Positions 30,816-51,412 of a stretch of 64,000 bases of DNA are shown piece after piece. Each line of letters begins with the position of its first letter. Positions within the stretch are counted from its first letter, which is position 1. Source of the stretch: an uncultured Candidatus Poseidoniales archaeon (lineage in GTDB: Archaea; Thermoplasmatota; Poseidoniia; Poseidoniales; Thalassarchaeaceae). Below the pieces are notes generated by a model. That model was given only the letters and a program-made list of their open reading frames with translations. It did no database searches and was not told the DNA's origin. The stretch is from the NCBI GenBank assembly GCA_905182515.1, contig CAJJBW010000001.1:146275-210274 (forward strand), given 5' to 3'. A program made the translations under genes and the position numbers.

Positions 30816-31412
30816 ATGGCATCGACTGGCCTGATAGCAGTACTTGTATTCATAATACCAATGTGTTTTACCCCCGGACCAAATAATTTACTTTGTGCTG
30901 CACACGGGTCTCAACATGGCTTTCGAAAAACCATTCCTCTTACTCTTGGTATGGCAATTGGTTGGACAACTCTAGGGATGTTTGTTGCAGCATTCACCTC
31001 ATTTATTGAAGAATATAATACATTTTTTGACTTATTGACATATGTTGGAGCCCTGTACATCACATATTTAGCATATAAGATCGCTTCATCTTCACATCTT
31101 AAGGAAGAAACCAAAACAGAGTTATTAGGTATCAAGACAGGAATATTCTTACAAGTAGTCAATGGAAAAGCATGGATCCATTTTTTGGTACTAATGTCAA
31201 TGCCATTCACAGCATTTGGTAGTGGATTTTTAGCAAATGCTGGATTGGTTATTTTAAATTTATTTTTTGGCTATCCTGCAGTTCTAACCTGGTCTTATTT
31301 TGGAACGGTTTTAAGAGTATTTTTTAAATCACCAGAAAAGGTAATGTGGCTTAATTATGGCTTAGGCGTGTCATTATTTGCTGTCGCAGTTTGGATTATT
31401 TTGCCACATTAG
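30816..31412 (+). CDS. LysE/RhtB-family exporter (second copy in the window)
   Basis: 'FTPGPNNLL' N-terminal motif; 6-TM size. Confidence 0.7.
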   Translation: MASTGLIAVLVFIIPMCFTPGPNNLLCAAHGSQHGFRKTIPLTLGMAIGWTTLGMFVAAFTSFIEEYNTFFDLLTYVGALYITYLAYKIASSSHLKEETKTELLGIKTGIFLQVVNGKAWIHFLVLMSMPFTAFGSGFLANAGLVILNLFFGYPAVLTWSYFGTVLRVFFKSPEKVMWLNYGLGVSLFAVAVWIILPH

Positions 31413-33130: not shown

Positions 33131-33955
33131 TCACGCTAATAGGCGTCTACGGTTGAAGGCTTCTTCTTCCATGCCTGTAAATTTCGCAGGTAGGATAAAG
33201 CTATGAATTTCCCCAGTCTCTATTTTAGAAAGTTCCCCCAGAGTACCTGCAAAGATTTGCTGATCAGTCCCCCCCAAATCACTCAATAGTATGCCTCTCC
33301 AGTCTTTAACAGAAGTATTTAATAGTGCATTAAAATCATTACTTTCTATATATTTCATAACGATTTTTTCTAGTAAAACTAACACTTCTTTAGGCTGCAT
33401 TGGCTTAGGCTTTTCTAACCCCATTCCGGTTGGATCCAAATCTAATAGCATAAGCGTATGTAATCCAAAATCATAATTTTTCAAATATATTTCGAGAGGC
33501 GACGTTGGCAAATAATCACCAAATGAATAAGGTAATGTTATTTGCCTACCAAAACGATAAGACTGCATTCCAGATAATGATACCGCAAGAGATGTGGCAG
33601 ATATACCAGGTATCAGATGAAATTCAATATTCTCCTCTTCACAATATGATTCCAAATCTATGTGAGTTGTTGCTTGCATTGGATCTCCGACAACTAATAT
33701 GCCAACTGCCATAGTTTTTGCTTCTTGTAAGATTTTTTTAGGAATCTCAATTTCCTCTCGCATTATCCTTTCCCAAGGTCCAATTAAAGTTTTTAGTCGA
33801 CTTTCCTCGTTTTCGGGGAGAACTGCTGTATAACCTTCTAAGTAAAGTTTTGAACAACTTTTTGCTGATTTCCTCGCCAATACTGTCATTTGGTCTAAAT
33901 TACCGGGTCCAAGGCCAATTAGCCACAACCCGGGAGGTGCATCATCCGCCGTCAT
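33131..33955 (-). CDS. dph5: Diphthine synthase
   Basis: Tetrapyrrole-methylase fold with 'LIGLGPGNLDQMT', 'LYLEGYT' and 'VVGDPMQATTH'. Confidence 0.85.
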   Translation of the reverse strand: MTADDAPPGLWLIGLGPGNLDQMTVLARKSAKSCSKLYLEGYTAVLPENEESRLKTLIGPWERIMREEIEIPKKILQEAKTMAVGILVVGDPMQATTHIDLESYCEEENIEFHLIPGISATSLAVSLSGMQSYRFGRQITLPYSFGDYLPTSPLEIYLKNYDFGLHTLMLLDLDPTGMGLEKPKPMQPKEVLVLLEKIVMKYIESNDFNALLNTSVKDWRGILLSDLGGTDQQIFAGTLGELSKIETGEIHSFILPAKFTGMEEEAFNRRRLLA

Positions 33956-33956
33956 C

Positions 33957-35156
33957 GTGAAGCACTCTACCCCCCTCCCAGTGATGAATATGATGCGTCA
34001 TCTTAAGGTGCCAAACTCTGATGTTGAGGGCGCCTTCACCAAATTAAAAGAAAATAATTGGCTTGCAAGTAATATGCTTATTTTTGCTTCTGAAAATGGT
34101 AAAAATAGATTAATACCTCTTAATAACGATGCTCCTGAAATGCCAAATAATTTATTAAAATACAGAGAAGTTAATTGTAAAGGAAAAATCGATAACCGCG
34201 TTAATCCAAATTGGTTAAACCATCTTAAAAAAACAATAGACAATGAAATTATAGAAAAATATGATGAATTATGGCCAGCATCCCATGAATTTATTGGTGA
34301 TATGATGATTGTAAGGATAGATGAGGAAATAATACAATTTTCTTCAAAGATAGCCAAAGCCAAACTTGATGCTCATCCTAAATTGAGATTAATTTTATCT
34401 GATCAAGGAGTTTTTGGAGAGTTACGAATAAGAGAATTGATTCCAATTGGAGTTAGGAATAATAATCAGATTATATTAGAAAATATACCTTTAGAATTAT
34501 GTAAGACTAAAGTTATTGTTAAAGAATCTGGAAGAGAAATAATTTGTGACCCTTCTATAGCTTATTTTTCTTCAAAATTACAAACTGAACGCCAAGAAAC
34601 ATTATATTTTGCTAAAAAATTAAAGAAAATATTAGGCAGACCTATAAATATTTGTGATCCATTTTGCGGAGTTGGTCCTGCTGTGTCTTCTCTATTAAAT
34701 GAACCAAATTTAACACATAATATACTGGCTTCAGATTTAAATCCTGAGGCTGTAAATATTCTTTTTGAAAATTTGTCCAAATGGGATAAAAGAAAATATC
34801 CAGAATCTTCTGGAAATATTGATTGGATGTATCCAAACAGATTAGTAGGAGTTGCAGATGCTACAGTTGTAGCCAAAAATAAAAACTATATTGGCAAATG
34901 GGATTTGTTGATGATAAATCTACCACACAAAACTTTAGAATTACTACCCTACTTACTCCCTTTAATTGACAATAATTCTCCTTCTTTAATCAGGGGCCGT
35001 ATAATTATTGAAGAAAGTAAAATAGAATATACAAACAAAATACTACACGAAATTCTCCCAGACCTTCTTCCGGGTTCAAAATCACTTTCGCTCAAAATAA
35101 AAAGAGATTATAGCGCAAAATTAAGGCTATGTTCTTTTGAAGCGTGGCTAGCATAA
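33957..35156 (+). CDS. TRM5/TYW2-family tRNA methyltransferase (Trm5 or Taw2)
   Basis: 'ICDPFCGVGP' (SAM motif) and 'MINLPH' (NLP catalytic loop). The listed start is GTG; a likely ATG start lies at 33984 (MNMMRHLKVP). Confidence 0.75.
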   Translation: MKHSTPLPVMNMMRHLKVPNSDVEGAFTKLKENNWLASNMLIFASENGKNRLIPLNNDAPEMPNNLLKYREVNCKGKIDNRVNPNWLNHLKKTIDNEIIEKYDELWPASHEFIGDMMIVRIDEEIIQFSSKIAKAKLDAHPKLRLILSDQGVFGELRIRELIPIGVRNNNQIILENIPLELCKTKVIVKESGREIICDPSIAYFSSKLQTERQETLYFAKKLKKILGRPINICDPFCGVGPAVSSLLNEPNLTHNILASDLNPEAVNILFENLSKWDKRKYPESSGNIDWMYPNRLVGVADATVVAKNKNYIGKWDLLMINLPHKTLELLPYLLPLIDNNSPSLIRGRIIIEESKIEYTNKILHEILPDLLPGSKSLSLKIKRDYSAKLRLCSFEAWLA

Positions 35157-35168
35157 AACGACGCTTTT

Positions 35169-35244
35169 TGGCGCCCCGACCGGGATTTGAACCCGGGTCG
35201 CAGCCTCGACAGGGCTGCATGATAGGCCACTACACCATCAGGGC
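35169..35244 (-). tRNA. tRNA-Asp (GUC), CCA encoded
   Basis: Hand-folded from the reverse complement GCCCTGATGGTGTAGTGGCCTATCATGCAGCCCTGTCGAGGCTGCGACCCGGGTTCAAATCCCGGTCGGGGCGCCA. Has a 7-bp acceptor stem, anticodon stem CAGCC/GGCTG with loop CTGTCGA, and T-arm CCGGG-TTCAAAT-CCCGG. Confidence 0.93.
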
Positions 35245-35325
35245 TTGGATTAGTCCGACGTGCGTTCTCTTTTTCAATCTTTAACCAGGGCATCATTCAT
35301 GACCTGTCGACTTTTCGCCTCAAAT

Positions 35326-35913
35326 ATGTCTGATGTCCAACTTGTGATTGACGTTGTAGATAATGGAGGACAATGGACTCACCGTGAATGGAGAATGTTA
35401 CGATATTTGGACGTTAATACCAAAATTTTATCCAATAAAACTCCACTTTCTGAATTTAGACAAGTCGATGGGTTGATTCTTTCTGGAGGCGCTGCAAGAG
35501 TTGGATTAACAGGGGAATTAGGTAATTGCGCTGAATATTTTGAATTGGATGTACCAATACTTGGAATTTGCGCAGGTCATCAATTCATGGCTGATTTTTA
35601 TGGTGGTAGTTCACGTGAAGCACTAAAACCAGAATTTGGAGAAGCTACAATCACATTAGTCAATGGAGGAGGTAGATTGTTTCAATCTACACCAACCAAA
35701 CAAATGGTTTGGGAAAGCCACAATGATGAAGTCATAGAATTACCTAAAAATTTTACAATAACGGCGTTTAGCCCCTCTTGTCAAATCCAGGCAATGGAAA
35801 ATGAATTTGGAAATAGATTTGGCGTACAATTCCACCCCGAGGTTGACCATTCTGAATACGGACAAGAAATATTTTCAAATTTTGTCAAAATTTGTAAATC
35901 TTCAAAAAATTGA
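35326..35913 (+). CDS. guaA: GMP synthase, glutamine amidotransferase subunit A
   Basis: 'VIDVVDNGGQWTHREWR', 'ILGICAGHQ' and 'QFHPEV'. The start is taken at ATG 35326 (MSDVQ) rather than 35260, which runs into the tRNA promoter region. Confidence 0.85.
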   Translation: MSDVQLVIDVVDNGGQWTHREWRMLRYLDVNTKILSNKTPLSEFRQVDGLILSGGAARVGLTGELGNCAEYFELDVPILGICAGHQFMADFYGGSSREALKPEFGEATITLVNGGGRLFQSTPTKQMVWESHNDEVIELPKNFTITAFSPSCQIQAMENEFGNRFGVQFHPEVDHSEYGQEIFSNFVKICKSSKN

Positions 35914-35962
35914 TACTATACCCAAAGGACAGATTGAAGAAGGGCAGGTGGGTCGCCCAAAC

Positions 35963-36235
35963 ATGGCTAAAGAGACCGAACACATGATTCTGTACAAGTG
36001 TAGGAGAACTCTTCGTACTCAGAGAATGCCCTATAATCCGACCGGAGATGTAATTTCCCCTTTTGATAATGTATCTATGATGGATCCAATGGAGATTAGA
36101 TACAAATGTCTTCGATGTGGGCATCTGGCATGGGTAGAAGCTGGCTCAACTGGAAAATCTTGTCACAAATGTGGATATCGCATCTTTATAAAACCAAGAA
36201 AACCAGGCGAACACAAGATTCTAAAAGCAGAATGA
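35963..36235 (+). CDS. rpoP: DNA-directed RNA polymerase subunit P (Rpo12) zinc ribbon, possibly with an N-terminal extension
   Basis: The C-terminal 48 aa, 'MEIRYKCLRCGH...KSCHKCGYRIFIKPRKPGEHKILKAE', match the RpoP pattern (CxxC...CxxCGY+I...+PR). Alternative starts at 36077 or 36089 would give the canonical ~50 aa. Confidence 0.65.
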   Translation: MAKETEHMILYKCRRTLRTQRMPYNPTGDVISPFDNVSMMDPMEIRYKCLRCGHLAWVEAGSTGKSCHKCGYRIFIKPRKPGEHKILKAE

Positions 36236-36340: not shown

Positions 36341-39300
36341 ATGAGTAACGCGAGCCAGTCCAAAAGAACAGCTTCTTTTCTAGTATTATTAATGATATTA
36401 ACTCCTGTATTAAGTTTGCAAACAAGTATGTTAGACACAAATCAAATTGATATTGAAAATAATTTCCAATTTAGAACTAATTCAAGTAATTCTGTAGTCG
36501 ATTGTGAATTAACAAATGTAACTATTACCGAGATTTATCACTATGGTAGTAACGAATGGTTCGAACTACATAATAGTGGTAATGAAACATGTGATTTGGG
36601 AGAATGGATAATCGGCGACAATGACGGATCTAATTTTCAGATTTCCAACGATACTAATATTACTTCTGATGGGTATATGTTATTCTCTAGAAGTAATAAT
36701 GATTTTAATTTCGACGTATCATGTTCTAATACAATGCTAATTGCAACTAGGGATGTTAGTTTTTCTAATGCAACCGACATAACCTCTTTGAGTTGTTACG
36801 GAGAATATGACGATAATTATTACACCACTAGTGGCGACGGCTCATGGGAGAATTGCAACGATGTGTGGGATTGGAATGAACCAGATGAGATGACTCCTAA
36901 TGCTACTAACTTATGCGCGGGTAATCCAATTATTTTATATGCCTTAGAATCGGATGGAACTTTAACCCAAAATCCAATTTCTATTAATAATGGAAGCTCA
37001 ACATTATTTTGGAATACAAGTAACTTACAAGATGGTCTTGAATACCAACTTTATTCAAATTGGAATTCTGAAACTTCATATGATTCCCAAACTAGTATTT
37101 TTATTGCAGATGGTTCAGATATAGAATTTAATTTAGATTCGAATCCATACTGGACCTGTGAAATTGGAATTAATGCATACATACTAAACCAATCTTCAGG
37201 TCAAACTGTAGAAAGATATACTAATGATTTAGACGTAAATTGCGATGTAGAAACGTCTCTTATATTGACGCATGTTTCCGATGGTTCAGAAGTAATTAGT
37301 GATGGATTCAATTTTAGCGGTAATAACTGGGGAGGAGACATTAAGTGGACAATTAGTAGTACAGAAATGAATATTCAAAATGATTACAAGTTGCAGGTAA
37401 TCATAAACCAAGACGATGAAGTAACATACTTCTCTCAAAGTGATTCCTGCGATAGCTGGCTAACATCTACTTCCTGTTTTATTGAAGAAAATTTTGTAGT
37501 TTATAACGAAACTTGCGACATATCAATTTTAGGATCATTCTACACAATTTCACCTTATGGATGGACAGAAATTGGAAGTAAAGAAATTAATGGTGTTGGC
37601 CTCTGTGATGGCGTTTCTGATGAGATTGAACCAGCAATTAGTCTATATATGAAAAATACTCTAAATGGTGAAACTTGGACAGAAGTTACAGATGACAATT
37701 ACGAACTTGATGAAAATACGACTACTCAAGAGTACTATTGGCAGTTTTCGGAATCTGCAATTGGTTCTGATGTAAGATTCCTATTCTATTATGAATATGA
37801 AAATGTAATGGATGAACAGTATAATTATGATGGCCTTCCAATATTTTGGAATGCTTCAATTAACGATTGCAATCCAAATATATATGCATATATCTATCTA
37901 TCCTCGCCAAATGGCGCTTCTCAAAACATCGATTATTGGTCCAGAACTATGTCTATAAGTTGTGAAGATTCAGAAGATATTGCTTTGCATATTCACAATG
38001 AAAGTAACTCCGACAATGACCTAGACAATGGAACAACAAATATGATCACAAATCTATCTAATCTTAATATTGGTGAAGAATACTTATTTGAGTGGTATTC
38101 ATATGAAAGTAGTTCATATACTGCTTCTAATGATGGTGCTGTTTATGGCGAGTATTATGACACATATACATTTACTCCTACATCTGAATTTGAATTAATT
38201 AATTGGGCTTTTGAAACACCTGGCCATTTATGTTCTATTACTATCTATTCTAATCTATATGTTATGTCAAACTTTTCTCAAGAATGGTGGCCCGTAGAAC
38301 AAATAGCAACTAATGATTGGCAGGAAGTAGATTATGCTAGCCTTGGTACTAGTGGCATCTGTGATGGTTCTGATATAGCCGAATTCAGCCCTGTAAATTT
38401 ATATTATAATTATGAAAATACATGGATTGAAGTAAACGAATCTACAAATTTATCTTCAGGAATTCATGATATGAAATGGCAAATTAGCGGTCTTAGCGAA
38501 GATATCAGCCTCTCACTTAACACCAATGTTGAGTATTATCTAAATAGTACTTATCATAGTTCATCCTACATTGGAAACGGAAATTTTGAATCTATTTGGG
38601 AACTAACTGTATCAGATTGGTCTTGTAATATCAATTATGAATTTGACTTGTATTTCTATACTATGAACGGAAATGGATATAATATTGACCAAGAAGTTGA
38701 CAATTCATTTATAGATGGGCCTTGCAACTCTCCAGTAGATGTTAGTAGTAGCAATGGCAATGAACCTAGCATGTCAGTGTCAGTTGTTGAAGGAAATACA
38801 GTAACTGAGATTGATTCAGGGAACCAGCTGAATGAAGGTGTAAATACCCTTAGATGGAATATTCAAGATCCAGTAGAAGATTATGAGCATTATATTCACA
38901 TGTATTTACAGTATAATGGAGCAAGACAAGAAATTTTATCCCATAGCTTCATTGCAGATTCTGGAGATATGTATGGAGATTGGACAATAGATATCCAAGA
39001 AGATGCGTGTGACTTGTATTTATTTTCAAGTTTATACGTTAAAGAGTATAATACTTGGGACCAAATCGACTCTCAAGGTATAAATATAGGTTATTCTGGA
39101 AATAATTCTGATTGTAATTACTCTACTCACCAATTTACAATTTCTGCATTAGATAATGAGACGTGGATTCAGAATCCAGATTCTCTAAATATCGGAATGA
39201 ATCAATTGAAATTCGACATCGAATCCCTTGATTTATTTGATAATATGACTTATTATATTAATACTAATTTTAATGGAATAGGATCAAATTCATTCAGTTT

Positions 39301-42300
39301 CTCTACATATTTTGATTTAGGCACTGGATCTTCAGTATCTCAATCTAATAACTATTATTATACTGGAGATGATATTTATTTCAATTTCACTGTAGAAGAA
39401 TGGACCTGTAGTGCTCAGGCGTCTTCACAAATTTACTATTTGACTCCTTACGGAGGTTGGGAAAATATTAGAAGTATGCCATCTGTTAATTTCGACGTTG
39501 ACGGTTGTTCAGCCCCGGCAGAACTGTCTCTATCACGCTTTATAGAGGGGGAATGGGAAGAAGACTTAGAAGGCCATAATACATTTGAATTAGAGGTAGG
39601 AGTAAATGAAATGTATTGGAACATGTCCAACTTAAATATGGAAGAAAAATATGAATTATATTTCTATGTTTATGAAAATAATAAATATACATATCAATCA
39701 GCAGGTGCTACTTTCTATCCTGAAGATTCTTCAATATCTTGGTATTTCCCATTAGATATAGAACAATCTAGTTGCAATTTACATGGTTATGGTACTTTAA
39801 GAATATATTCTGATGGTCATTTTAGAGATATTGATTCCATAACTTTCTATCCTGAAGAGCCATGTATTCCAGAGTTTGATATCACATTCCTAGATGACTC
39901 ATCATCTTGGTTAGATACATCAAATAACTCACTATCTCTTGGCACTAATCAAATGCTTTTTGATCTATCAAATTTAGGTCACGGAGATTATGAAATAGAC
40001 TATTATTGGAATAGTGAAAATACAGCAAACGGATGGTTCTATGATAACTATTTCACCGTAGATGAAAATAACAATGGTTTGTATTGGAATATGACTTTAG
40101 AAGAGACAGATTGTAATATATATATTGATATAAATGTTTATGATAGATCATACCAACGTAATGATTACATTGGAGGTTATAATAATGTTGAACTAATTGG
40201 CCCTTGTATGTTGCCATTCTCATTAGAAGTTGCAAATGCCGATGGAACTTTTGATGATGCCAATGATGATTCTTTAGTATCTGGTATAAATAATATGGTT
40301 TGGAATATTACTTATTTAGAAATTGGTAGTGATTACCGATTAAACTGGCACTGGTATTCAGCCACTGATAGTATGCAAACAGATTATGATTTTACTTACA
40401 ATGGTACAGATATATTCTGGGACTTAAACCTCTCAATTTGGGACTGCTATGTTAATATCAATGCTTACCTGTATAATGATAGTAATGGCGGTAATAATGA
40501 ATTTACTCAGTACTTAACATATAATCCAGAAGGATGCAAGGAAGGAGGAGTCATTAACCTTCAAGCAAATAGGTCTTATGGCTGGGATGATACTGATGAT
40601 AATACAAATGCTAATGATGGTATAAATGAACTTAGATGGAATGTAAATAACTTAGAAATAAATTATAGTTATACTTTAGAAGTGTTAGCTTATAATAATG
40701 GATATCTAATGGATTATACGACTACCACTTGGTATTCTTCTTCAGACAATGAAATAATAGAATTTACAATTGATATAGAAGAACAAACTACTTGCAACGT
40801 CAGATTTTCTGCTAGATTGTTTGTCGACTCCGGAATTAAATTAATTCAGGTTGACAATAGAGACTTCTATATTTATCCAGATTGTGATAATTCAGAAGAA
40901 TTTTGGACAATACCTGTTTTAGTATTGCAGGATGACGGCACATGGTCTGAAACACCCTTTTCTGAGAATGGCAATATTACAGTAAGATTAGATTTATCAA
41001 ATTTACAAAATGAAACAATGTATTACATCAATGGCTATGTTTCTAATGATTATACATCTGAATCCTTTAATTGGAATGACTTTTACCCTTCTGATGAACC
41101 AAATTATATAGATTTGGAAATTACATCTGACCAGTGGACCTGCGAAATTTCAGTATATGTTCACTTACATATGTATACAATTACAGGTAATGAGCACGTC
41201 AGTATCCCACAATATTATATAGATACTCCATGTATAGATATTGGCGAAATTGAATTAGATTATAATGGGCAACAATCCTCATCTAATAATATAAATTTAC
41301 AAAATGGTACCAACAATATGACATGGGATTTAACAGAGTTAATAAATAATCAATCATACACCTTAGAATGGAAAACTCAATACAACAATGATATTGTCGA
41401 CTATCAATACGAAACATGGTTTACTGGTAATGATACAAATGCTACATTTGAATGGATTTTAGAGTTAGATACAGAAATAACATGCAATGTAAATATCGAC
41501 TATAGAATTTTTATAGATATATCTTCAGACTCTTCTCTAGACTGGAAAGAAATGATAAATATGAATTATTACGATAGCATTAGTTGTAATGAATATGTTT
41601 ACCCAGATAACTATTACTTGAACTTACACGCTGAAATTAATGGTACAATGGTGGAAGATCCAGAGACTCTCCCTTCAGGAGAAGTAAACTTTGAACTACA
41701 CTTCGAAAACATGTCAGTTGGTGCTGATTACAGAATGTATTTCTATTACAGTAATACAGGATTTAATAGTAATTCTCAATACATATATTTCACATACGAT
41801 GGCTCTCCAATGGAGATGACTATCGACATCGCTCCTTGGGCATGTGATGTTTACTTTAATTGGGATATGTATTTGTTAGACTTTAGATATGATTCTGGAA
41901 ATAGTTACAACGAGTGGTATCTAGGAAATGATAATTTCTACATCGACGGCCCTTGTGAAACTTTGAATTATGACAGTTCTGACTACCCTAATTTCACAGT
42001 AACAGATGATGCTGGAAATGATATTGATGATGATACTGATTTCTCAACAGGAAACAACACAATCATACTTGGAGCAGATAATCTACAGAATGATTTCCCT
42101 TATTATATGGAATTACAAGTACGTTATGACGGATATCTAAATATCTTCAATACTCATAGATTTATAGGAAACAACACAACTGCAGAAGAGTTTGTAGTGA
42201 CATTAGATATTCCCGGACATGTATGTAATGTAGAAGTAAGATCTTACTTCTATGTAATTACTTCAAGTGGAAGTAATCAGATGAACTCCACAAATCACTA

Positions 42301-45300
42301 TGCAGATGGACCATGTGATGGATCAGATGGAGATAGCCGAATCAATACTCCATTACACGCGTACATCAACGGAACATGGGTTGAAGTTGATGATGATACT
42401 TTCTTCCCTACTGGAGATACAGACTTGTCTTGGAATCTTAGCGCATTAGATCCAGATACATACTATTACATGAATTTCAATGCAGCTAATTCTGGATGGA
42501 GTGGATACTTCTATGGAGATGATATCCCAGATTATCTATCAGATTGGACAATGACTCTGAGTGAGTTTAAATGTGATATGTATATCTATAATTCTATCTA
42601 TGCAATCAGTGATTATACTGGTTGGAATGATTTCGGCAGTGACTACTTATATCCAAACAATGATTGTCTAGATGGTGGAGATATTACTCTAGAAGCTCAA
42701 GATGATGAAGGCAATTGGAGCTCACTAACATCTTATGGTTTTGATCTATTACCAGGAACAACAAACTTCTCTTGGTCATTAGATAATCTATTAGAAGGAT
42801 ATGATTATGAATTTTATTGGTATCAACAAGGATCAGATTATGTATCTGAATACCAATATTTCACTGCAGATTCTAATGGTTCAGAATCACTTGATTTCTC
42901 AATAACAATAGATCAATACGAGTGTAACGTGTATTTCTATGCATACTTGAGACCAATGTCTGAATATACTGATACGTATGAAGAAACAGAAAGTTTCTCC
43001 TTTTGGCCAAACACACCATGCTATCCTCCATTCAACGTTGCTGCAGAAGATGCTGCAGGTGATTTGACTTTGGATGCATTAGATCCTGACTTTGTACTAA
43101 GCCCAGGAGATAATCACTTATTCTTTGACTTCAATCATATGGATAATGGAACAACATACTACCTAGATTGGTACTGGAGCTCCCAGAATAGCTGGAATGG
43201 CTGGTATCAAAACTATATCTATGTAGATACTTCAGACAATATCTCTGATGGTCTACATTTCAATATGACTTTGGATCAAATGGAATGTTATGCTTATGTT
43301 TATGTGAACGTGTATAATTATTCTAATGGTAATTCAAACCACATGGGAGCCTATGACATTAATTTCGAAGGACCTTGTATGGTACCATTCGATCTAGATG
43401 GTATACCTGAGAATAATATTATTGATATCGGTGAAAATAATTATACTTGGAATCTTGATAATCTAGATACAGGTAGCAATTATTCTTTAGAGTATTATTA
43501 TTCTATGAATTCAGGATGGTATGGTTTTTATAATCACGACTTTACATTCAATGGTACGGAAGAATTTATTGATTTCAGTATGAATGTTACCGAGTGGGAT
43601 TGCAATGTAAACATCAATGCAAATATTTACAATACAACAGATGGAAATATGAATTATATATATGGAGAATCCTGGAACTTGTATAATCCAAATTGTTATC
43701 AAGTTGATTATTATGCATTAGATTCTGATGGAGATTGGATTCAATATAATAATATTGACGCAGGAACTACTGAATTATTCTGGGAAATAAACTACATGAA
43801 TGAAAATGTTCCAACCGGATATGAATTTAAATTACAATATGAAGTAGTAACAGATTATGATTGGTCTAATTCGATTCAGTATAGCATTAATTGGACACAA
43901 GACGATAATACAATACAACAACTACCATGGAGTATTAGCATTAATGAGTTTGTATGCAACGTCTATGTAACTTCCAATTTATATGTAAATACATCAAATG
44001 GATGGTCGAGTGTTAGAGGATCCGGATTCGATCTCTACGCTCCTTGTGAACCAATGCCTTCAGGATGGTATAACTTCTCTATGAATGATAACGGAACTTG
44101 GGATCAATTGTATGACGGCTGGAATCACATGATTCAAGAAGAGGGAGTTTATGAAATGAGATGGAATGTAATGGACCTTGATATCGGAGTTACATACGAA
44201 ATGTCTTGGGTTGCGTATGCATTTGGGCACGAATTATCAAGTTATTCATTGCAATGGAATGCAACAGATAGTAATGGCACAATAGATTTTAACATCACTA
44301 TTCCACATTGGTATTGTGGTATGGAATTTGAGTCTAAATTGTCCTTCGATAATGATGGTACAATGTTTGACATAGCATCTAACTATTATTATGAAGAAGG
44401 TCCTTGCAATTCTTCTATTGAGGAATTCACAGATGCAGTCAATGTTGATTTAGATTTGATACTTATTAATGATAATATATATTCTCAAAATTATGAACTT
44501 ATGATACCATTTGGCTATACTCTTAATGATGAAATAAAACTATACTTAGATGCGGTATTTGGTAATATGGATGGTATTCTAAACGCATCAGAGGCAACCA
44601 TGGCAGAGAATTCATTTAATTCACAAACAAATGGTACTGAAGAGACAACTCCGGAATTCGCATTGAACGGAGTAAATTTGACTAGTTTCACATTTAATCC
44701 AGCAATTCTAAGTAATTTAACAGGAACTCCAACGCTTACTGGATCATGGATTTTAGAATATTTCCATATATATGGTGTTGAAGTAACTTTAACAATTGAA
44801 CTTGAATCTGAAGAAGAAATTGAATGGTATTTCAATATCTTAGAAAACTTAGACCTTATGGTGGAATCTGTTAAGGTTACAGATAGTGAGAATGTATCTA
44901 TGATGCTATCAAATAGCTTTAATCTTACATCTGGAAATTATTCGCTGAACATTACTTGGTTATTGGCTAATATTCCAGATCCAAATTTAGAATTAGAACA
45001 ACTTGATCTAGTTTCTGAGGAGTTTGATGAATTAACAAATATAATGGATGAGAGTTTCAATGTGACTATCCATACTTTCCAGATAAATCTAACTAATTTG
45101 AGCCATCAAGATTATTTAATCACCTACAATGTACATGTTGATGAATATTATGATGATAACGTATCATATGATATTAACCAAGAAGTGAACAATGACATCA
45201 GAAACTTTACTTTACTATCGAATATACACACGTGTAGTGCTTTAATTTCTATTGAAGTGTATGATAGAAATAATGAACAGGTACTTAGTGAAAATTACAC

Positions 45301-46489
45301 ATTAGAAGGTACATGTCAACCATATGATTATGATATGGACGGTATTTCTAATGAAGATGATGCATTCCCATTCGATGCAAGTGAATGGCTAGATACAGAT
45401 GGAGATGGTTATGGAGACAACTCAGATGCATTCCCTAATGATTCAAACGAGTCATTAGATACTGACGGAGATGGAATTGGAAATAACGCTGATGATGACG
45501 ATGATGGCGATGGAATAGATGATGAATCAGATAATGATAACGATGATGATGGAGTTTCTGACGATTATGACGTATTCCCTTACGATCCAACTGAATGGTC
45601 TGATGATGACGGTGACGGAGTTGGAGACAATTCCGATGTTTTCCCTTACGATCTAACTGAATGGTCAGATTATGATGGCGATGGAATTGGAGATAACTCT
45701 GATGACGATTCTGATGGCGATGGAGTGCCTAATGATGTCGACGATCTACCTTTCAATAGTGAAGAATCATCCGATACTGACGGCGATGGAGTAGGGAATA
45801 ATAATGATGCATTCCCTAACGACCCTGATGAACAATTAGATACTGATGGTGACGGAGTTGGAGATAATGCTGACGGTGATGATGATGGTGACGGAGTTGG
45901 AGATAACTCCGATGCATTCCCATTAGATTCAACTGAAACAACCGATACTGATGGTGACGGATTTGGAGATAATGTAGACCAATTCCCCACAGATTCCAAT
46001 GAAAATACTGATAGTGATGGAGATAATGTTGGAAATAACGCTGATGCATTCCCCAGTAACCAAAATGAATGGGCAGATTCTGATGGTGACGGAGTTGGAG
46101 ATAACTCCGATGTGTTCCCATCTAATGCAGCTGAAACTACAGATACAGATTCTGATGGATTTGGAGATAACTCCGATGAATTCCCTAATAATGCTAACGA
46201 ATGGATTGATACAGATGATGATGGAGTTGGTGATAATGCTGATTTATTCCCAAGCAATATTAATGAATGGGCAGATTCTGATTCTGATGGAACTGGAGAC
46301 AATTCCGATGCATTCCCTGACGATGATTCAGAAACAGAGGATACAGATGGCGATGGTATTGGAGACAATGCACAAGCCGCTGCTGAAGAGGCCGATAAAG
46401 ACGGATTTTTACCAGGATTTTCATCAATAATGGGTGCAGTATCTATGTTGGGTGCCGCAATATTAGTAGCCGGACGACGAAAAGACTGA
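36341..46489 (+). CDS. 3382-aa acidic secreted cell-surface giant (signal peptide, LTD, repeat modules, TSP3 repeats, PGF-CTERM)
   Basis: Single uninterrupted ORF. See the sub-features below for the domain evidence. Confidence 0.9.
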   Translation: MSNASQSKRTASFLVLLMILTPVLSLQTSMLDTNQIDIENNFQFRTNSSNSVVDCELTNVTITEIYHYGSNEWFELHNSGNETCDLGEWIIGDNDGSNFQISNDTNITSDGYMLFSRSNNDFNFDVSCSNTMLIATRDVSFSNATDITSLSCYGEYDDNYYTTSGDGSWENCNDVWDWNEPDEMTPNATNLCAGNPIILYALESDGTLTQNPISINNGSSTLFWNTSNLQDGLEYQLYSNWNSETSYDSQTSIFIADGSDIEFNLDSNPYWTCEIGINAYILNQSSGQTVERYTNDLDVNCDVETSLILTHVSDGSEVISDGFNFSGNNWGGDIKWTISSTEMNIQNDYKLQVIINQDDEVTYFSQSDSCDSWLTSTSCFIEENFVVYNETCDISILGSFYTISPYGWTEIGSKEINGVGLCDGVSDEIEPAISLYMKNTLNGETWTEVTDDNYELDENTTTQEYYWQFSESAIGSDVRFLFYYEYENVMDEQYNYDGLPIFWNASINDCNPNIYAYIYLSSPNGASQNIDYWSRTMSISCEDSEDIALHIHNESNSDNDLDNGTTNMITNLSNLNIGEEYLFEWYSYESSSYTASNDGAVYGEYYDTYTFTPTSEFELINWAFETPGHLCSITIYSNLYVMSNFSQEWWPVEQIATNDWQEVDYASLGTSGICDGSDIAEFSPVNLYYNYENTWIEVNESTNLSSGIHDMKWQISGLSEDISLSLNTNVEYYLNSTYHSSSYIGNGNFESIWELTVSDWSCNINYEFDLYFYTMNGNGYNIDQEVDNSFIDGPCNSPVDVSSSNGNEPSMSVSVVEGNTVTEIDSGNQLNEGVNTLRWNIQDPVEDYEHYIHMYLQYNGARQEILSHSFIADSGDMYGDWTIDIQEDACDLYLFSSLYVKEYNTWDQIDSQGINIGYSGNNSDCNYSTHQFTISALDNETWIQNPDSLNIGMNQLKFDIESLDLFDNMTYYINTNFNGIGSNSFSFSTYFDLGTGSSVSQSNNYYYTGDDIYFNFTVEEWTCSAQASSQIYYLTPYGGWENIRSMPSVNFDVDGCSAPAELSLSRFIEGEWEEDLEGHNTFELEVGVNEMYWNMSNLNMEEKYELYFYVYENNKYTYQSAGATFYPEDSSISWYFPLDIEQSSCNLHGYGTLRIYSDGHFRDIDSITFYPEEPCIPEFDITFLDDSSSWLDTSNNSLSLGTNQMLFDLSNLGHGDYEIDYYWNSENTANGWFYDNYFTVDENNNGLYWNMTLEETDCNIYIDINVYDRSYQRNDYIGGYNNVELIGPCMLPFSLEVANADGTFDDANDDSLVSGINNMVWNITYLEIGSDYRLNWHWYSATDSMQTDYDFTYNGTDIFWDLNLSIWDCYVNINAYLYNDSNGGNNEFTQYLTYNPEGCKEGGVINLQANRSYGWDDTDDNTNANDGINELRWNVNNLEINYSYTLEVLAYNNGYLMDYTTTTWYSSSDNEIIEFTIDIEEQTTCNVRFSARLFVDSGIKLIQVDNRDFYIYPDCDNSEEFWTIPVLVLQDDGTWSETPFSENGNITVRLDLSNLQNETMYYINGYVSNDYTSESFNWNDFYPSDEPNYIDLEITSDQWTCEISVYVHLHMYTITGNEHVSIPQYYIDTPCIDIGEIELDYNGQQSSSNNINLQNGTNNMTWDLTELINNQSYTLEWKTQYNNDIVDYQYETWFTGNDTNATFEWILELDTEITCNVNIDYRIFIDISSDSSLDWKEMINMNYYDSISCNEYVYPDNYYLNLHAEINGTMVEDPETLPSGEVNFELHFENMSVGADYRMYFYYSNTGFNSNSQYIYFTYDGSPMEMTIDIAPWACDVYFNWDMYLLDFRYDSGNSYNEWYLGNDNFYIDGPCETLNYDSSDYPNFTVTDDAGNDIDDDTDFSTGNNTIILGADNLQNDFPYYMELQVRYDGYLNIFNTHRFIGNNTTAEEFVVTLDIPGHVCNVEVRSYFYVITSSGSNQMNSTNHYADGPCDGSDGDSRINTPLHAYINGTWVEVDDDTFFPTGDTDLSWNLSALDPDTYYYMNFNAANSGWSGYFYGDDIPDYLSDWTMTLSEFKCDMYIYNSIYAISDYTGWNDFGSDYLYPNNDCLDGGDITLEAQDDEGNWSSLTSYGFDLLPGTTNFSWSLDNLLEGYDYEFYWYQQGSDYVSEYQYFTADSNGSESLDFSITIDQYECNVYFYAYLRPMSEYTDTYEETESFSFWPNTPCYPPFNVAAEDAAGDLTLDALDPDFVLSPGDNHLFFDFNHMDNGTTYYLDWYWSSQNSWNGWYQNYIYVDTSDNISDGLHFNMTLDQMECYAYVYVNVYNYSNGNSNHMGAYDINFEGPCMVPFDLDGIPENNIIDIGENNYTWNLDNLDTGSNYSLEYYYSMNSGWYGFYNHDFTFNGTEEFIDFSMNVTEWDCNVNINANIYNTTDGNMNYIYGESWNLYNPNCYQVDYYALDSDGDWIQYNNIDAGTTELFWEINYMNENVPTGYEFKLQYEVVTDYDWSNSIQYSINWTQDDNTIQQLPWSISINEFVCNVYVTSNLYVNTSNGWSSVRGSGFDLYAPCEPMPSGWYNFSMNDNGTWDQLYDGWNHMIQEEGVYEMRWNVMDLDIGVTYEMSWVAYAFGHELSSYSLQWNATDSNGTIDFNITIPHWYCGMEFESKLSFDNDGTMFDIASNYYYEEGPCNSSIEEFTDAVNVDLDLILINDNIYSQNYELMIPFGYTLNDEIKLYLDAVFGNMDGILNASEATMAENSFNSQTNGTEETTPEFALNGVNLTSFTFNPAILSNLTGTPTLTGSWILEYFHIYGVEVTLTIELESEEEIEWYFNILENLDLMVESVKVTDSENVSMMLSNSFNLTSGNYSLNITWLLANIPDPNLELEQLDLVSEEFDELTNIMDESFNVTIHTFQINLTNLSHQDYLITYNVHVDEYYDDNVSYDINQEVNNDIRNFTLLSNIHTCSALISIEVYDRNNEQVLSENYTLEGTCQPYDYDMDGISNEDDAFPFDASEWLDTDGDGYGDNSDAFPNDSNESLDTDGDGIGNNADDDDDGDGIDDESDNDNDDDGVSDDYDVFPYDPTEWSDDDGDGVGDNSDVFPYDLTEWSDYDGDGIGDNSDDDSDGDGVPNDVDDLPFNSEESSDTDGDGVGNNNDAFPNDPDEQLDTDGDGVGDNADGDDDGDGVGDNSDAFPLDSTETTDTDGDGFGDNVDQFPTDSNENTDSDGDNVGNNADAFPSNQNEWADSDGDGVGDNSDVFPSNAAETTDTDSDGFGDNSDEFPNNANEWIDTDDDGVGDNADLFPSNINEWADSDSDGTGDNSDAFPDDDSETEDTDGDGIGDNAQAAAEEADKDGFLPGFSSIMGAVSMLGAAILVAGRRKD
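36503..36800 (+). other. Lamin-tail-like domain (LTD) within the giant protein
   Basis: 'VTITEIYHYGSNEWFELHNSGNETCDLGEWIIGDNDGSNFQI...GYMLFSRS' matches the LTD signature (I-EI...-EWIEL-N....DLSGW-L-D). Confidence 0.6.
36920..45322 (+). repeat. About 22 divergent tandem protein modules (~120 aa each) with two conserved Cys; one Cys-free ~280-aa spacer precedes the last module
   Basis: Recurrent '[LM]xW[ND][ILMV]xxL....Y' entry, 'WxC[ND][VI]x[IVF]....[LIV]Y' core and '[GTA]PC' exit. Examples are 'YWTCEIGINAYIL', 'TEWDCNVNINANIY', 'DQYECNVYFYAYL' and 'FIDGPC'/'FEGPC'/'ADGPC'. Confidence 0.8.
45323..46369 (+). repeat. About 18 thrombospondin-type-3-like Ca-binding repeats (DxDxDGxGDNxD-xFPxD)
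   Basis: 'DTDGDGVGDNSDAFPND'-type units repeated. At DNA level, 'ggtgacggagttggagataa' recurs several times. Confidence 0.85.
46400..46486 (+). other. PGF-CTERM archaeal sorting/anchor signal
   Basis: Extreme C-terminus 'DGFLPGFSSIMGAVSMLGAAILVAGRRKD': a PGF tripeptide, a hydrophobic helix and a basic end. Confidence 0.75.
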
Positions 46490-46615: not shown

Positions 46616-46701
46616 TGGTGCAGAGGACAGGATTTGAACCTGCGAAGCACTACGCACTGGGACCTCATCCCAGCCCCTTTGACCAACTCGGGTACCTCTG
46701 C
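46616..46701 (-). tRNA. tRNA-Leu (GAG), type II with long variable arm, CCA encoded
   Basis: Reverse complement GCAGAGGTACCCGAGTTGGTCAAAGGGGCTGGGATGAGGTCCCAGTGCGTAGTGCTTCGCAGGTTCAAATCCTGTCCTCTGCACCA. Acceptor GCAGAGG/CCTCTGC, anticodon stem CTGGG/CCCAG with loop ATGAGGT, and discriminator A. Confidence 0.92.
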
Positions 46702-46750: not shown

Positions 46751-47209
46751 TTATTGCACAGAGACTAAATCACCAGAATTTACTATACCTTTTTTTATTA
46801 TTGATGCATACCATCTTGACCAACCAGGATATGTTTTTTCTGATATTCGATTGAAGTTACCATCAGAGAAAGAATCTATTATAGTTTTACAAGGTGGTGC
46901 TACACCTGTCAATTGAATAATACATTCTCCAATATTAATTATTACTCCAGATCTAAGTAAATCCCAATCTATTCCTTGGATTGTAATATTTTCTCCCGTG
47001 CTTCCAGCAAATATCGGATTATACTCCTCTTGTAACTGACGTATCTTTTCTATAGAATATATGCAGACTGCCCTCTTAGGGCCACCATGATATTTCAAAT
47101 CATTTTGTTTATCCCCAATTACTCCTTCATAATTAATATTTATTTTTTCAACAGGATATTTAGGAACTCCGCCCAACGAATTAACATTTACAGAATGTAC
47201 TACTCCCAT
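46751..47209 (-). CDS. MOSC-domain protein
   Basis: 'KYHGGPKRAVCIYS' and a beta-barrel-sized 152 aa, typical of YiiM-like MOSC proteins. Confidence 0.75.
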   Translation of the reverse strand: MGVVHSVNVNSLGGVPKYPVEKININYEGVIGDKQNDLKYHGGPKRAVCIYSIEKIRQLQEEYNPIFAGSTGENITIQGIDWDLLRSGVIINIGECIIQLTGVAPPCKTIIDSFSDGNFNRISEKTYPGWSRWYASIIKKGIVNSGDLVSVQ

Positions 47210-47332
47210 GTCTTAGCCGTACAGGGCAAAATCAATAATATTATTGCAGAATAAGGAAATAAAATGGCTGTTTTTCTATTTTTTATCATAATTTGTCTGA
47301 ATCATCATATCCTTTGACCTATTGGAAGGAGT

Positions 47333-48700
47333 ATGGCAGAATTTGGTGACCACCCTTCTATTCCAGATAGTATCGAAAATTTATTGATTGATGATACTGT
47401 TTCTACAATATTTCTTAAAGCCGAATGCCCTACTAGGGTAAAAAGTGGCCATATTTCTTCTTTATCGCTGAAGCAGTTAGAAGATCCTCCTTGGGATAAA
47501 CCAACTTTACAGTTATTATGTGATGATTTATCTTTAGTAATAGAACAAAATGACGCTCGTTCAGACTGTTTCGTTGAAATTGAAAGAACAGGTTGTAAAA
47601 TAATGCAAATAGGAGATTTGCGAATTGCATGTGCGTGGCCACCCTTTTCAGATGCATGGGAAATTACAATCGTTAGGCCAGTAGCGTATTTACAAATTTC
47701 AGATTATGATCTAAATCCAGAATTAATGGGCAGATTAAAAGATCATCACAGAGGGGTGTTTGTAGTAGGCCGCCCCGGTTCTGGAAAGACAACTTTTGCT
47801 CAAGCAATAGCCGCGTATCTTGATTCTGAAGTAGGAGCAATGGTAAAAACAATGGAGGCCCCAAGAGATCTTCAAGTTCCACAACGAGTTACTCAATATG
47901 CACCACTGGAAGGAGATTTAGAAAAAACTGCCGAAGTAATTTTCTTGGTACGTCCTGATTTTGTTATTTTTGATGAAGTTCGTAGATCCAGAGATTTTGA
48001 AATATTTAGTGATGTGCGATTAGCGGGAGTGGGTTTACTCGGCGTAACTCATGCCAATAGTGCACTCGAAGCTATTCAAAGAATGGTTGGCAAGGTAGAA
48101 TTAGGTTTAATAGCACAGGTTCTTGATACTGTAATACATATTGAAAAAGGAAAAATAGCACAGGTTCTTGAGTTAAAAATGGTGGTTAGAGCACCTACAG
48201 GAATGGAATCAGATTTAAGCAGGCCAGTTATTGAAATTAAGGAATTTCCTTCTGGCAAAATAACTCACGAAATGTTTGCGTTTGGTTCAGAAATTGCTGT
48301 CGTACCAGTAAATATGGAGGATGGCGAGGGCGGAAGTCCTGCTATGAGGATGGCAGCTGAACAGTTAAAGAAAGAAATATCAAAGTTAACAGGAATTCCC
48401 GTATCTCACGCAAAATTTTTGACTGACGCTTCAGCTGAAATATACATTAACGAATCTAGTATCGGGGCAATGGTTGGGACTAGGGGCGAATCTATAAGAC
48501 AATTAGAGCAAGATTTGAATGTAAAGTTAAATGTAAATTCAGTTAAAGATTTACCTCGGGCGTTAAGAAAAAGAATTGAAAACTCCTCTAATAACTCCCA
48601 AGAAGACACAGATCAATGGCGCAGTAGATCTGGGAGGCAATGGGATAATAATCCTGGAAAAACTAAAAAAGGAAAAGGTAGGAAAGGAAGAAGGAACTAA
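47333..48700 (+). CDS. COG1855-type archaeal PilT-family ATPase with C-terminal KH domain and Lys/Arg/Gly-rich tail
   Basis: 'ACAWPPFSDAWEITIVRPV', Walker A 'GRPGSGKTT', 'VIFDEVR' and the KH GxxG 'VGTRGESIRQLE'. Confidence 0.7.
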   Translation: MAEFGDHPSIPDSIENLLIDDTVSTIFLKAECPTRVKSGHISSLSLKQLEDPPWDKPTLQLLCDDLSLVIEQNDARSDCFVEIERTGCKIMQIGDLRIACAWPPFSDAWEITIVRPVAYLQISDYDLNPELMGRLKDHHRGVFVVGRPGSGKTTFAQAIAAYLDSEVGAMVKTMEAPRDLQVPQRVTQYAPLEGDLEKTAEVIFLVRPDFVIFDEVRRSRDFEIFSDVRLAGVGLLGVTHANSALEAIQRMVGKVELGLIAQVLDTVIHIEKGKIAQVLELKMVVRAPTGMESDLSRPVIEIKEFPSGKITHEMFAFGSEIAVVPVNMEDGEGGSPAMRMAAEQLKKEISKLTGIPVSHAKFLTDASAEIYINESSIGAMVGTRGESIRQLEQDLNVKLNVNSVKDLPRALRKRIENSSNNSQEDTDQWRSRSGRQWDNNPGKTKKGKGRKGRRN

Positions 48701-49647
48701 ACCACCATTCTTCTATAAGCCATAAAAGTAATTATCAATATAATGATACTAATAATTCCCCCTCCATAAATTAAAGCCTCACCTTCTGAAATTCCTAAAT
48801 CATCCAATATAGTGAAGTTACTACCTAACCCATTTTCAATTACTCCTTTAATTTCTGGCGCTACAACTAGTAATACAGACTCTTCTTTCTGACAGGATTC
48901 TGCTACTAACTTTCTTTCATCCAAAATTATGAGGCAACCTCTATATTCTTCATTTAAGTTTGAAGGGGTCGTCATTTCAAATTCACAATTGGCAACTCCA
49001 CTACCACTTGATATTTGTATTGAACATTCACTACTCAAGATATTAAATCCAGAAACCCACATTCCCTCAGAGTTAGCATTTTCATCTACAAGATGTAGAT
49101 CCAAAATCATTTTCTGGTCCAAATTGCTGCTACATGAGTATGATGCTGAGAAAGTCACAATATCGCCCGCATTTACTTCAATCGAATTAACGCCATAATT
49201 CACATCACATGAGGTGTATTCTAGTAACTCCACTTCAACATTCCATTCCTCAGTATTTGTTAAGAAACCAACAGGAATTCCCACTGCAGTAGTTACTTCT
49301 GCTGTAATATTCATTTCATAAAATCCAGAGGAAATATCGCTACTTGTCTCGACAGACACCACAAAAGATTCTTCAGAGCCAGATGAAATTGAAACAGTAT
49401 TCGGGCCAGAAAATGTAAATTCTTCCGATTCATAGTTAATAGAAACATCTTCATCATAAGGTCTGTTATTTGTAAGGACACAATGAACATTTTCATTTTT
49501 ATTTAGTTGTGGATTTATTATTAGATTATCTTCAATACATTCTAGTTCAATGCCTGGTAATATTTCTTGTCCGGATACATTTGGTGTTATGACTACTAAT
49601 TGAGCCCCCAAAAAACAAAATAGAACCACTAGAACCTTACCACTCAT
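48697..49647 (-). CDS. 316-aa secreted Cys-containing protein with C-terminal TM anchor; hypothetical
   Basis: Signal peptide 'VLVVLFCFLGAQLVVITPNVSG' and C-terminal 'GGGIISIIILIITFMAYRR'. Confidence 0.6.
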   Translation of the reverse strand: MSGKVLVVLFCFLGAQLVVITPNVSGQEILPGIELECIEDNLIINPQLNKNENVHCVLTNNRPYDEDVSINYESEEFTFSGPNTVSISSGSEESFVVSVETSSDISSGFYEMNITAEVTTAVGIPVGFLTNTEEWNVEVELLEYTSCDVNYGVNSIEVNAGDIVTFSASYSCSSNLDQKMILDLHLVDENANSEGMWVSGFNILSSECSIQISSGSGVANCEFEMTTPSNLNEEYRGCLIILDERKLVAESCQKEESVLLVVAPEIKGVIENGLGSNFTILDDLGISEGEALIYGGGIISIIILIITFMAYRRMVV

Positions 49648-49795
49648 ATTAATTGAATTTAAGTATATGACATAGGCTTTCCTATTATTTGATTATTTTA
49701 TCTCATTAACTGTTTGATTTATACTATAAATTCCATTCAATATCTAATTTTATGTTTCAAAGCATTCATCACGACCTTTCTTTTCGAGGCCAGTA

Positions 49796-51367: not shown

Positions 51368-51412
51368 GAAATATTGTCGAACCATTGAAGGACTTAGTAG
51401 AAATGCGAGAGC

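Follow-up and report, generated by a model that had tools for sequence, protein, structure and literature searches.

A stretch of 64,000 nucleotides (the window) from an uncultured marine group II (MGII) archaeon of the Candidatus Thalassarchaeaceae (order Poseidoniales; assembly GCA_905182515.1, contig CAJJBW010000001.1, forward-strand positions 146,275 to 210,274) contains a giant gene, whose architecture, relatives, length variation and proposed role at the cell surface are described here. According to the list of open reading frames (ORFs) and the translation, the complete gene (3382 codons and a stop) lies at 36341..46489 and runs uninterrupted over 15.9% of the window; coordinates are those of the window and refer to the forward strand unless (-) is given. 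The probability that so long a frame stays open by chance is ~1e-111 at 34% GC, and probably no other gene of this small genome is larger. The product (3382 aa, 386 kDa, pI ~4.05) is identical to a database protein (P0185) encoded on a 287,764-bp NCBI contig, is poor in Lys (0.62%) and Arg (1.06%), and is rich in Asp (11.3%), Asn (11.2%) and Tyr (7.5%). From the N- to the C-terminus, it consists of a signal peptide, a lamin-tail domain (LTD), 21 modules containing two Cys each, a Cys-free spacer, module 22, 18 loops of the thrombospondin type 3 (TSP3) kind, and a PGF-type tail. An earlier reading of the bare letters (the sequence-only reading) had described an uninterrupted 10,149-nt ORF filling ~16% of the window, the same order of parts with about 21 modules, a spacer, one more module and about 18 TSP3 repeats, and a Lys/Arg-poor, Asn/Tyr/Asp-rich composition, and all of this was borne out by Cys segmentation, Pfam matches for LTD and TSP_3, hydropathy, and counting (21, 1 and 18, respectively).

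Strongly hydrophobic 15-aa windows were found at two places only in the protein, aa ~10-28 and aa ~3362-3378, as expected of a protein with a signal peptide and a membrane anchor at its C-terminus. The predicted Sec signal peptide (aa 1-27, 36341..36421) has a basic n-region and a hydrophobic core and ends in ...SLQ, and this N-terminal sequence is kept in the orthologues P0003, P0005, P0007 and P0009. The LTD (aa 59-165, 36515..36835) sits inside an N-terminal region with six Cys (aa 28-192). Pfam PF00932 was matched with 35.9 bits by the whole protein and 42.1 bits by the N-terminal 200 aa (gathering cutoff, 34.3), although the match is partial and marginal, covering profile positions 7-74 of 109; the LTD would form the membrane-distal tip. 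N-x-S/T sequons number 88, compared with 62 ± 6.7 in shuffled sequences, an enrichment that the sequence-only reading had anticipated; it had also placed them often inside a conserved 'WN' entry motif of the modules, but a sequon at this 'WNxS/T' position is present in only 6 of the 22.

The array of 21 consecutive two-Cys beta-sandwich modules (aa 193-2689, 36917..44407) was delimited by Cys segmentation, alignment, AlphaFold2 modelling and Foldseek, and module 22, a divergent copy (aa 2870-2992, 44948..45316), by Cys segmentation and alignment. Among the 52 Cys of the protein, 22 pairs of the form C-x(27-43)-C were found with a period of 106-133 aa, and a Cys-free gap of 276 aa separates module 21 from module 22. 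Identity of the modules to module 10 is 16-36%, and the invariant columns of the module alignment are the two Cys only, accompanied by one near-invariant Gly. The family was defined by a length of ~115 aa, a ...TW...L..G.N...W...NL..G..Y... core and C-x(27-43)-C at the end, features present in 22 of the 22 modules of the window, and its setting is tandem arrays upstream of the spacer, TSP3 region and PGF tail. When the whole protein and pieces including modules and spacer were scanned against Pfam and NCBIfam, modules and spacer remained unmatched even at E<=1, and when the 22 modules were scanned one by one at E<=10, no family matched more than one of them; Pfam fn3 was matched by a single module (E=0.09). 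The sequence-only reading had named such profile searches as the trial of its claim of novelty, and they assigned the repeat region to no known family.

AlphaFold2 models of two different modules, for which paralogous modules served as the input alignment, were all-beta with 8-9 strands (pLDDT 91.7 and 90.2). Foldseek against PDB returned Ig-like sandwiches only among the best-ranked 30 matches (TM-score 0.44-0.58, best E 2.6e-4), headed by ester-bond repeat domains of Gram-positive adhesin stalks (8f9l, 8fha, 8dj2, 4ni6), and RhoGDI, PDE-delta and UNC119 were likewise among the matches. In the model, the first Cys is located directly before the second-last strand and the second directly after the last strand; since the pair flanks the last two strands, a disulfide closing the terminal hairpin is plausible, and each module probably has one such disulfide stapling its last hairpin. 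Likeness to fibronectin type III (FN3) was confined to the 'W...NL..G..Y' segment, which resembles the E-F strand motif of FN3: the module profile gave marginal titin/FN3 matches among PDB sequences (E 0.04-0.7), and hhalign of the module against an FN3 profile built from the weaker matches of a database search returned 59% probability over 38 of ~115 columns. This was too weak to file the module as FN3, and that assignment was dropped. Judging from the models, the module is an Ig-like or FN3-like beta-sandwich with its own sequence family, so that the novelty claimed for it by the sequence-only reading stands for the sequence, whereas the fold is an ordinary Ig-like beta-sandwich.

The Cys-free spacer domain (aa 2690-2869, 44408..44947) is conserved in the orthologues with 33-85% identity, its core is common to the paralogous giants P0020 and P0022, and it matched no profile of Pfam, NCBIfam or PDB. 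The spacer alignment contains a D-x3-G-[ND]-x-D-G-x-L-N-x-S-E motif (aa 2737-2751, 44549..44593) with invariant or near-invariant columns D48, G52, D55, G56, L58, N59, S61 and E62; it resembles an EF-hand loop and may provide an extra calcium site. The TSP3-like region (aa 2993-3345, 353 aa; 45317..46375) contains 107 Asp, no Cys and no Lys/Arg. Pfam TSP_3 (PF02412) scored 37 bits on the region alone, above the cutoff of 25, and 17.6 bits on the whole protein, and 18 DxDxDG loops (17 by regular expression and the last at aa 3334) were counted at a spacing of 22 or 13 aa, in the long/short (~23/13 aa) pattern which, together with a score at or above the cutoff, was taken to identify TSP3. Disulfide-bonded Cys pairs within the repeats, which mark the eukaryotic type, are lacking in this Cys-free region, and by its sequence it is a prokaryotic Cys-free variant. 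The C-terminus (aa 3358-3382, 46412..46486) reads ...DGFLPGFSSIMGAVSMLGAAILVAGRRKD and unites the three parts of a PGF-CTERM-like sorting signal, that is, the PGF motif, a hydrophobic helix and a terminal basic cluster (RRKD); this tail is kept in all orthologues read. NCBIfam scans of the whole protein (E<=0.1) and of the C-terminal 63 aa (E<=1) listed no dedicated PGF-CTERM model; the tail weakly matched the C-terminal ends of haloarchaeal proteins that depend on ArtA (TIGR04216, TIGR04281), and no literature linking ArtA to MGII was found.

A profile made from the 22 modules was scored against 1.84 billion representative proteins and matched 203 of them at E<=1e-3 and 71 at E<=1e-10. The full-length matches inspected were fragments or orthologues of the giant gene or other MGII (Poseidoniales) giants, and the weaker matches were bacterial FN3 arrays aligned at profile positions ~14-56 only; in the orthologue P0002, the profile matched 22 stretches, including the counterpart of module 22. 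A direct homologue search yielded 11 orthologues (3352-4772 aa) with the frame open throughout, and the spacer pattern, searched in one genome per GTDB species, was found at 5 loci, all in metagenome-assembled genomes (MAGs) of MGII/Poseidoniales. The module and spacer family is undescribed and, among the members inspected, restricted to Poseidoniales. The novel architecture asserted by the sequence-only reading holds insofar as module and spacer have no curated family and no paper characterising the combination of LTD, module, TSP3 and PGF tail was found, but the 11 orthologues and the paralogous giants are public, some of them with names ('lamin tail domain-containing protein', 'thrombospondin type 3 repeat-containing protein'; one orthologue is entered as 'lamin tail domain-containing protein [Candidatus Thalassarchaeaceae archaeon]'). 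'Thrombospondin genes' and adhesion domains were proposed earlier as adhesion factors of MGII (PMC6461757, PMC4511931), and the MGII literature on such factors does not describe the present architecture (PMC6461757, PMC4511931, PMC8821943).

The paralogous giants P0020, P0022 and P0029 (2037-2806 aa) have the same modules, spacer core, TSP3 block and ...PGF...GRRKD tail, and carry a periplasmic-binding-protein domain and LDL-receptor-A repeats in place of the LTD. The Peripla_BP_6/ANF-receptor ligand-binding domain is inserted in the module array (P0020 aa 503-839; P0022 aa 501-836), and LDL-receptor class A repeats are located at aa ~1858-1885 of P0020 and aa ~1274-1304 of P0029. Since these relatives mount solute-binding and LDL-A domains on the same C-terminal part, the array can be regarded as a stalk presenting binding domains, and the part made of spacer, TSP3 region and PGF tail seems to serve as a chassis that can be reused. 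Separately, P0009 (aa ~4030-4110) and P0011 (C-terminal third) were observed to contain additional modules past the spacer, along with a Cys-rich insert in which LDL-A-like 'NDG..DC.DG.DE' motifs occur, a part that the protein of the window does not have.

The gene occurs in two length forms. Over 28.7 kb, the JGI contig L001 matches the window with 99.94-99.97% identity, and it encodes a form of 4435 aa with 31 modules (called there as 4406 aa, from a later start). By BLASTN, the window corresponds to L001 without exactly 3159 bp, equal to one period between two 1780-bp direct repeats, and these two repeats of L001 are identical after the first 11 bp. The repeat, R, is present in the window as a single copy (41621..43400, 1780 bp, aa 1761-2354, most of modules 14-18), whereas L001 has two copies with 4 extra modules (B19-22) between them; in the giant gene of the window, self-BLAST detected no long internal DNA repeat, the only one found being 238 bp long, 76% identical and located in the TSP3 region. 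Modules 10-18 constitute a 9-module super-repeat. In the most divergent orthologues, P0009 and P0011, modules 1-9 are followed by block A (10-18), a diverged block B (19-27), modules 28-30, the spacer and the last module, and this A-plus-B layout would be the ancestral one. In the clade of the window, the last five modules of blocks A and B are now identical, and in P0003, P0004 and P0005 the entire 3.16-kb block is duplicated with 99.9-100% DNA identity. The 22-module short forms retain the first four modules of A type (window) or of B type (P0006, P0007, P0008, P0010). Every short form is paired with a close long-form partner, and both forms recur across assemblies; a scan of JGI metagenomes for both forms of the window's species gave 7 loci with 47-81% identity, none of which belonged to this population.

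Since the form in the window equals that of L001 minus one 3159-bp period, 3382 aa is the length either of a short allele or of a collapsed assembly. Collapse had been named by the sequence-only reading as a finding that would undo its claim, and the 4435-aa form on a near-identical contig touches on it in part. If the assembly had collapsed, the true gene would be the 4435-aa, 31-module form, and the assembler would have run through R and skipped the 3159-bp loop, which consists of modules B19-22 and another copy of modules 14-18. L001 is near-identical to the window and yet holds the extra 3159 bp between its copies of R, the short form has no unique junction sequence, so that short reads cannot prove it, and at least 5 contigs, the longest of 310 kb, carry the 4435-aa form. 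Several MAGs of this population have a truncated gene, broken off ~45 aa into R, 40-59 aa short of the end of R, or exactly where R meets the X1 module sequence of L001, and R therefore acts as a repeat in them; the sister species has the same long/short pairing with copies 99.9-100% identical, and truncation of the giant gene at contig ends is common in other species too. However, an assembler of the plain de Bruijn type would be expected to break at a loop of this kind and not to skip it, and other contigs of the population do break about k-1 bases into R, whereas four separate assemblies carry an unbroken short form, including the window (= P0185, 288-kb contig), P0186 and P0002, the last on a 131-kb contig whose name (k141_...) is in MEGAHIT style. 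Three SNPs in or just after R (42975, 43348 and 43406) are common to the window and contig L002 and differ from both R copies of L001, and these two are therefore not a collapse of L001-type reads; in addition, short forms are frequent in the sister species (at least 14 contigs, another k141 contig among them). A real copy-number polymorphism is moderately favoured on this evidence, and collapse is regarded as a weaker but still substantial candidate. The giant gene and its architecture are real under either explanation, and the module count (22 or 31) alone is in doubt.

Conservation along the protein is mosaic. Between the window and the short orthologues, identity was 28-64% in modules 1-9, 30-46% in modules 10-13 (a paralogue swap), 72-95% in modules 14-18 and 52-92% in modules 19-22, and the flanking housekeeping proteins were 58-89% identical in the same comparison species. 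Modules 14-21 at 41590-44407 were also compared with the flanks at 33131-35913 and 46751-53005. By these identities, the presumed membrane-distal half evolves much faster than the genome, and conservation of the proximal half equals or exceeds that of core enzymes; exposed adhesins typically vary at the outer end and are conserved at the inner one. The conservation of modules 14-18 reflects either unusually strong constraint or recent interspecies exchange or gene conversion.

The product is best regarded, with fair but limited confidence, as a giant cell-surface fibre of this MGII archaeon, a lipid-anchored, calcium-stiffened adhesin or surface fibre, and the topology fits the secreted, C-terminally anchored, acidic, calcium-binding surface fibre suggested by the sequence-only reading. 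The protein would be exported via Sec by its N-terminal signal peptide and held at the membrane by its C-terminus through the PGF-CTERM-type signal, which archaeosortase A would cleave and a lipid would replace, by analogy with the haloarchaeal S-layer glycoprotein. Outward from the membrane, a calcium-loaded Cys-free TSP3 'wire' of 18 loops would be followed by module 22 and the spacer with its EF-hand-like loop, then by the rod of 21 Ig-like modules, and finally by the LTD (an Ig-fold) at the distal tip. Calcium would be bound by the 18 TSP3 loops and the EF-hand-like loop of the spacer, every module would contain a disulfide, and the protein would be N-glycosylated. At ~4 nm per domain, the rod would measure ~90-100 nm, and ~130 nm in the long form. 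It would most likely serve to attach the cell to particles, phytoplankton surfaces or other cells or to bring it into contact with them; reach would come from the stalk and specificity from the tip and outer modules, and recombination between identical copies of the super-repeat would generate the length classes of 22 and 31 modules. An extension of this proposal, put forward tentatively and held to be somewhat doubtful, is a length-switching fibre, in which the 9-module (3.16-kb) super-repeat is homogenised within each lineage by gene conversion, unequal recombination can toggle between 22 and 31 or more modules in natural populations, and diversification of the outer modules far outpaces that of the genome.

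Several points weigh against the proposed adhesin. Glycosylation, calcium dependence, lipid anchoring and adhesion are each read from motifs. The tail, which the sequence-only reading had called a PGF-CTERM anchor, does have the motif, the helix and the RRKD ending, but PF18204 (PGF-CTERM) gave 15.6 bits against a cutoff of 18.8 (E=0.016), and no exosortase or archaeosortase match was obtained among the 30 Pfam-scanned ORFs of the 64-kb window. In the models, the resemblance to adhesin stalks holds at the level of the fold class only, the structural matches being weak (TM-score ~0.5), and the exact length in the window may be an assembly artefact. To our knowledge, LTDs have no established ligand in prokaryotes. 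MGIIb archaea were found to be mostly free-living, which is awkward for a particle adhesin (PMC8821943).

The protein could instead be a structural component of the envelope, such as an S-layer-like canopy, a glycocalyx, or a spacer shielding the cell from viruses or grazers, with no specific ligand. The S-layer glycoprotein is the best-known haloarchaeal protein with a PGF-CTERM signal, and the C-terminus weakly matches its model TIGR04216, but with 14 bits against a cutoff of 400; extreme acidity and sequon enrichment would suit a coat, phage-driven selection on an exposed coat would likewise make the outer half hypervariable, and the coat would change in thickness with a switch of length class. 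A linear array of 22-31 domains with a distinct tip domain is, however, the layout of a fibre and not of a lattice-forming S-layer, and the relatives bear the ligand-binding payloads Peripla_BP_6 and LDL-A; an envelope role is considered rather unlikely. Still less credence is given to a tethered capture device that brings dissolved or polymeric substrates (DNA, peptides, glycans) to the cell. Prokaryotic LTDs are known from nucleases and DNA-metabolism proteins that act outside the cell (PMC5118699), the heterotrophic MGII break down proteins and polymers (PMC6461757), a periplasmic solute-binding domain is built into this same stalk in the paralogous giants, and peptidases M28 and S15 and several transporters are encoded in the same window. 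This protein itself, however, has no catalytic or solute-binding domain, its LTD match is to a generic Ig-fold with no known ligand, and a stalk of ~100 nm is unnecessary for solute capture.

Among known systems, the adhesin or surface fibre proposed here can be set beside the ester/isopeptide stalk adhesins of Gram-positive bacteria (Clostridium perfringens Cpe0147; 4ni6, 8f9l, 8fha, 8dj2), which are also long tandem Ig-like arrays and follow a common plan of a covalent cross-link in each domain, a distal binding domain and a C-terminal signal for a sortase-type enzyme. TM-scores to Cpe0147-type domains are only 0.44-0.51 with 10-15% identity and no detectable sequence homology. The ester bond of the Cpe0147 type is formed by a Thr-Gln pair, and neither the close structure nor the bond residues of such a domain were found in the archaeal module (E 2.6e-4, the two Cys being the only invariant residues), where the cross-link would be a disulfide; likewise, the anchor would be a lipid, in contrast to the LPXTG-dependent cell-wall attachment of Gram-positives. 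In Myxococcus xanthus MtsC, annotated as a cell-cell cohesion protein, a Cys-free prokaryotic TSP3 array also directly precedes a short C-terminal sorting tag, and its equivalog model NF047638 was the best NCBIfam match of the archaeal giant, but with 64.8 and 83.8 bits over the TSP3 part only, against the 350 bits set for membership; MtsC differs in its tag (MYXO-CTERM) and sorting enzyme and has no module array or LTD. The Haloferax volcanii S-layer glycoprotein and other PGF-CTERM substrates of ArtA are similarly Sec-exported, highly acidic and sequon-rich and end in PGF, a helix and a basic tail, and the signal is cleaved and lipid-modified in Haloferax; the archaeal giant is a fibre and not a lattice protein, and is below threshold for both PF18204 and TIGR04216. 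In giant calcium-stiffened marine bacterial adhesins (the Marinomonas primoryensis ice-binding adhesin and LapA/SiiE-type BIg arrays), tens of Ig-like extenders project a binding end, and these proteins and the archaeal giant alike are very acidic, appear calcium-dependent, are probably each encoded by the largest gene of the genome and are prone to repeat-number variation. The bacterial adhesins are type-I-secreted, with an N-terminal outer-membrane anchor and calcium between Ig domains, whereas the archaeal giant has its calcium motifs concentrated in a TSP3 block of their own, a C-terminal anchor and a module family of unrelated sequence. FN3 domains share the local E-F strand motif, and the archaeal module differs by its 8-9 strands and the putative terminal disulfide hairpin. 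The class of function is familiar, and what is new is the undescribed module and spacer family with a recombination-prone super-repeat.

Contact of MGII with particles, algae, viruses and one another has so far been inferred from vague 'adhesion domain' annotations, and the giant gene defines a concrete order-specific surface structure with an Ig-like module family, a spacer with a putative calcium loop and a common C-terminal part. The 22/31-module dimorphism and the split between outer and inner conservation offer handles for population genomics (phage pressure, strain tracking). The repeat R accounts for the frequent breaks of MGII MAGs at this locus, and caution is due wherever the length of such a gene is read from a short-read assembly. 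If the length-switching fibre were true, the most abundant planktonic archaea of the surface ocean would have a built-in variation of surface reach and of recognition by phages and grazers, based on a domain family and a spacer that have not yet been met outside Poseidoniales. Giant repetitive adhesins are common finds and nothing in the present result overturns expectations; it matters for MGII biology and for the interpretation of MAGs.

The order of genes around the giant gene is conserved in several species, with a TYW2-like methyltransferase and a GATase preceding it (the GATase being upstream) and MOSC, a secretion-type ATPase, a thermosome and PurH downstream. It is flanked by tRNA-Asp(GTC) at 35169-35244 (-), ~1.1 kb upstream, and tRNA-Leu(GAG) at 46616-46701 (-), 127 bp downstream. 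A mobile island, suggested by these flanking tRNAs, was ruled out by the core archaeal neighbours, the synteny across species and the flank-like composition; GC inside the giant gene is 0.315-0.360, slightly below that of the flanks (0.351-0.378), and from its surroundings it is a resident gene. Several public contigs (10.4-kb, 13.65-kb) contain the giant gene alone and end ~100-200 bp beyond both of its sides, and assemblies seem to break in its flanks as well as within the gene.

In the ORF at 35801-36235, the last ~50 aa (YKCLRCGH...CHKCGYRIFIKPRK) resemble the zinc ribbon of RNA polymerase subunit P with no Pfam match, and the actual gene there is probably a short ORF directly upstream of the giant gene. 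A 316-aa ORF at 48697-49647 (-) without a Pfam match combines a signal peptide with an acidic ectodomain that contains Cys and a transmembrane anchor at the C-terminus; it was considered as a candidate archaeosortase and ruled out, being a signal-plus-transmembrane surface protein and not a multi-pass enzyme. In L001, L002, L004 and L005 it follows the giant gene two genes downstream, and L003 lacks it at that place. At 14962-17964 (-), a 1000-aa ORF adjoining the M28 peptidase gene begins with a hydrophobic segment, continues with a large acidic part that contains Cys, and ends in a transmembrane helix and a basic tail; it has no Pfam match and resembles a second uncharacterised surface protein. 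Two adjoining paralogues of 502 aa with BNR/Asp-box (sialidase-like beta-propeller) repeats are encoded at 20678-23691 (-). A basic, non-secreted 569-aa ORF without a Pfam match is present at 31409-33118 (-), and it is 78-81% identical in the sister species, where it is syntenic upstream of the giant gene.

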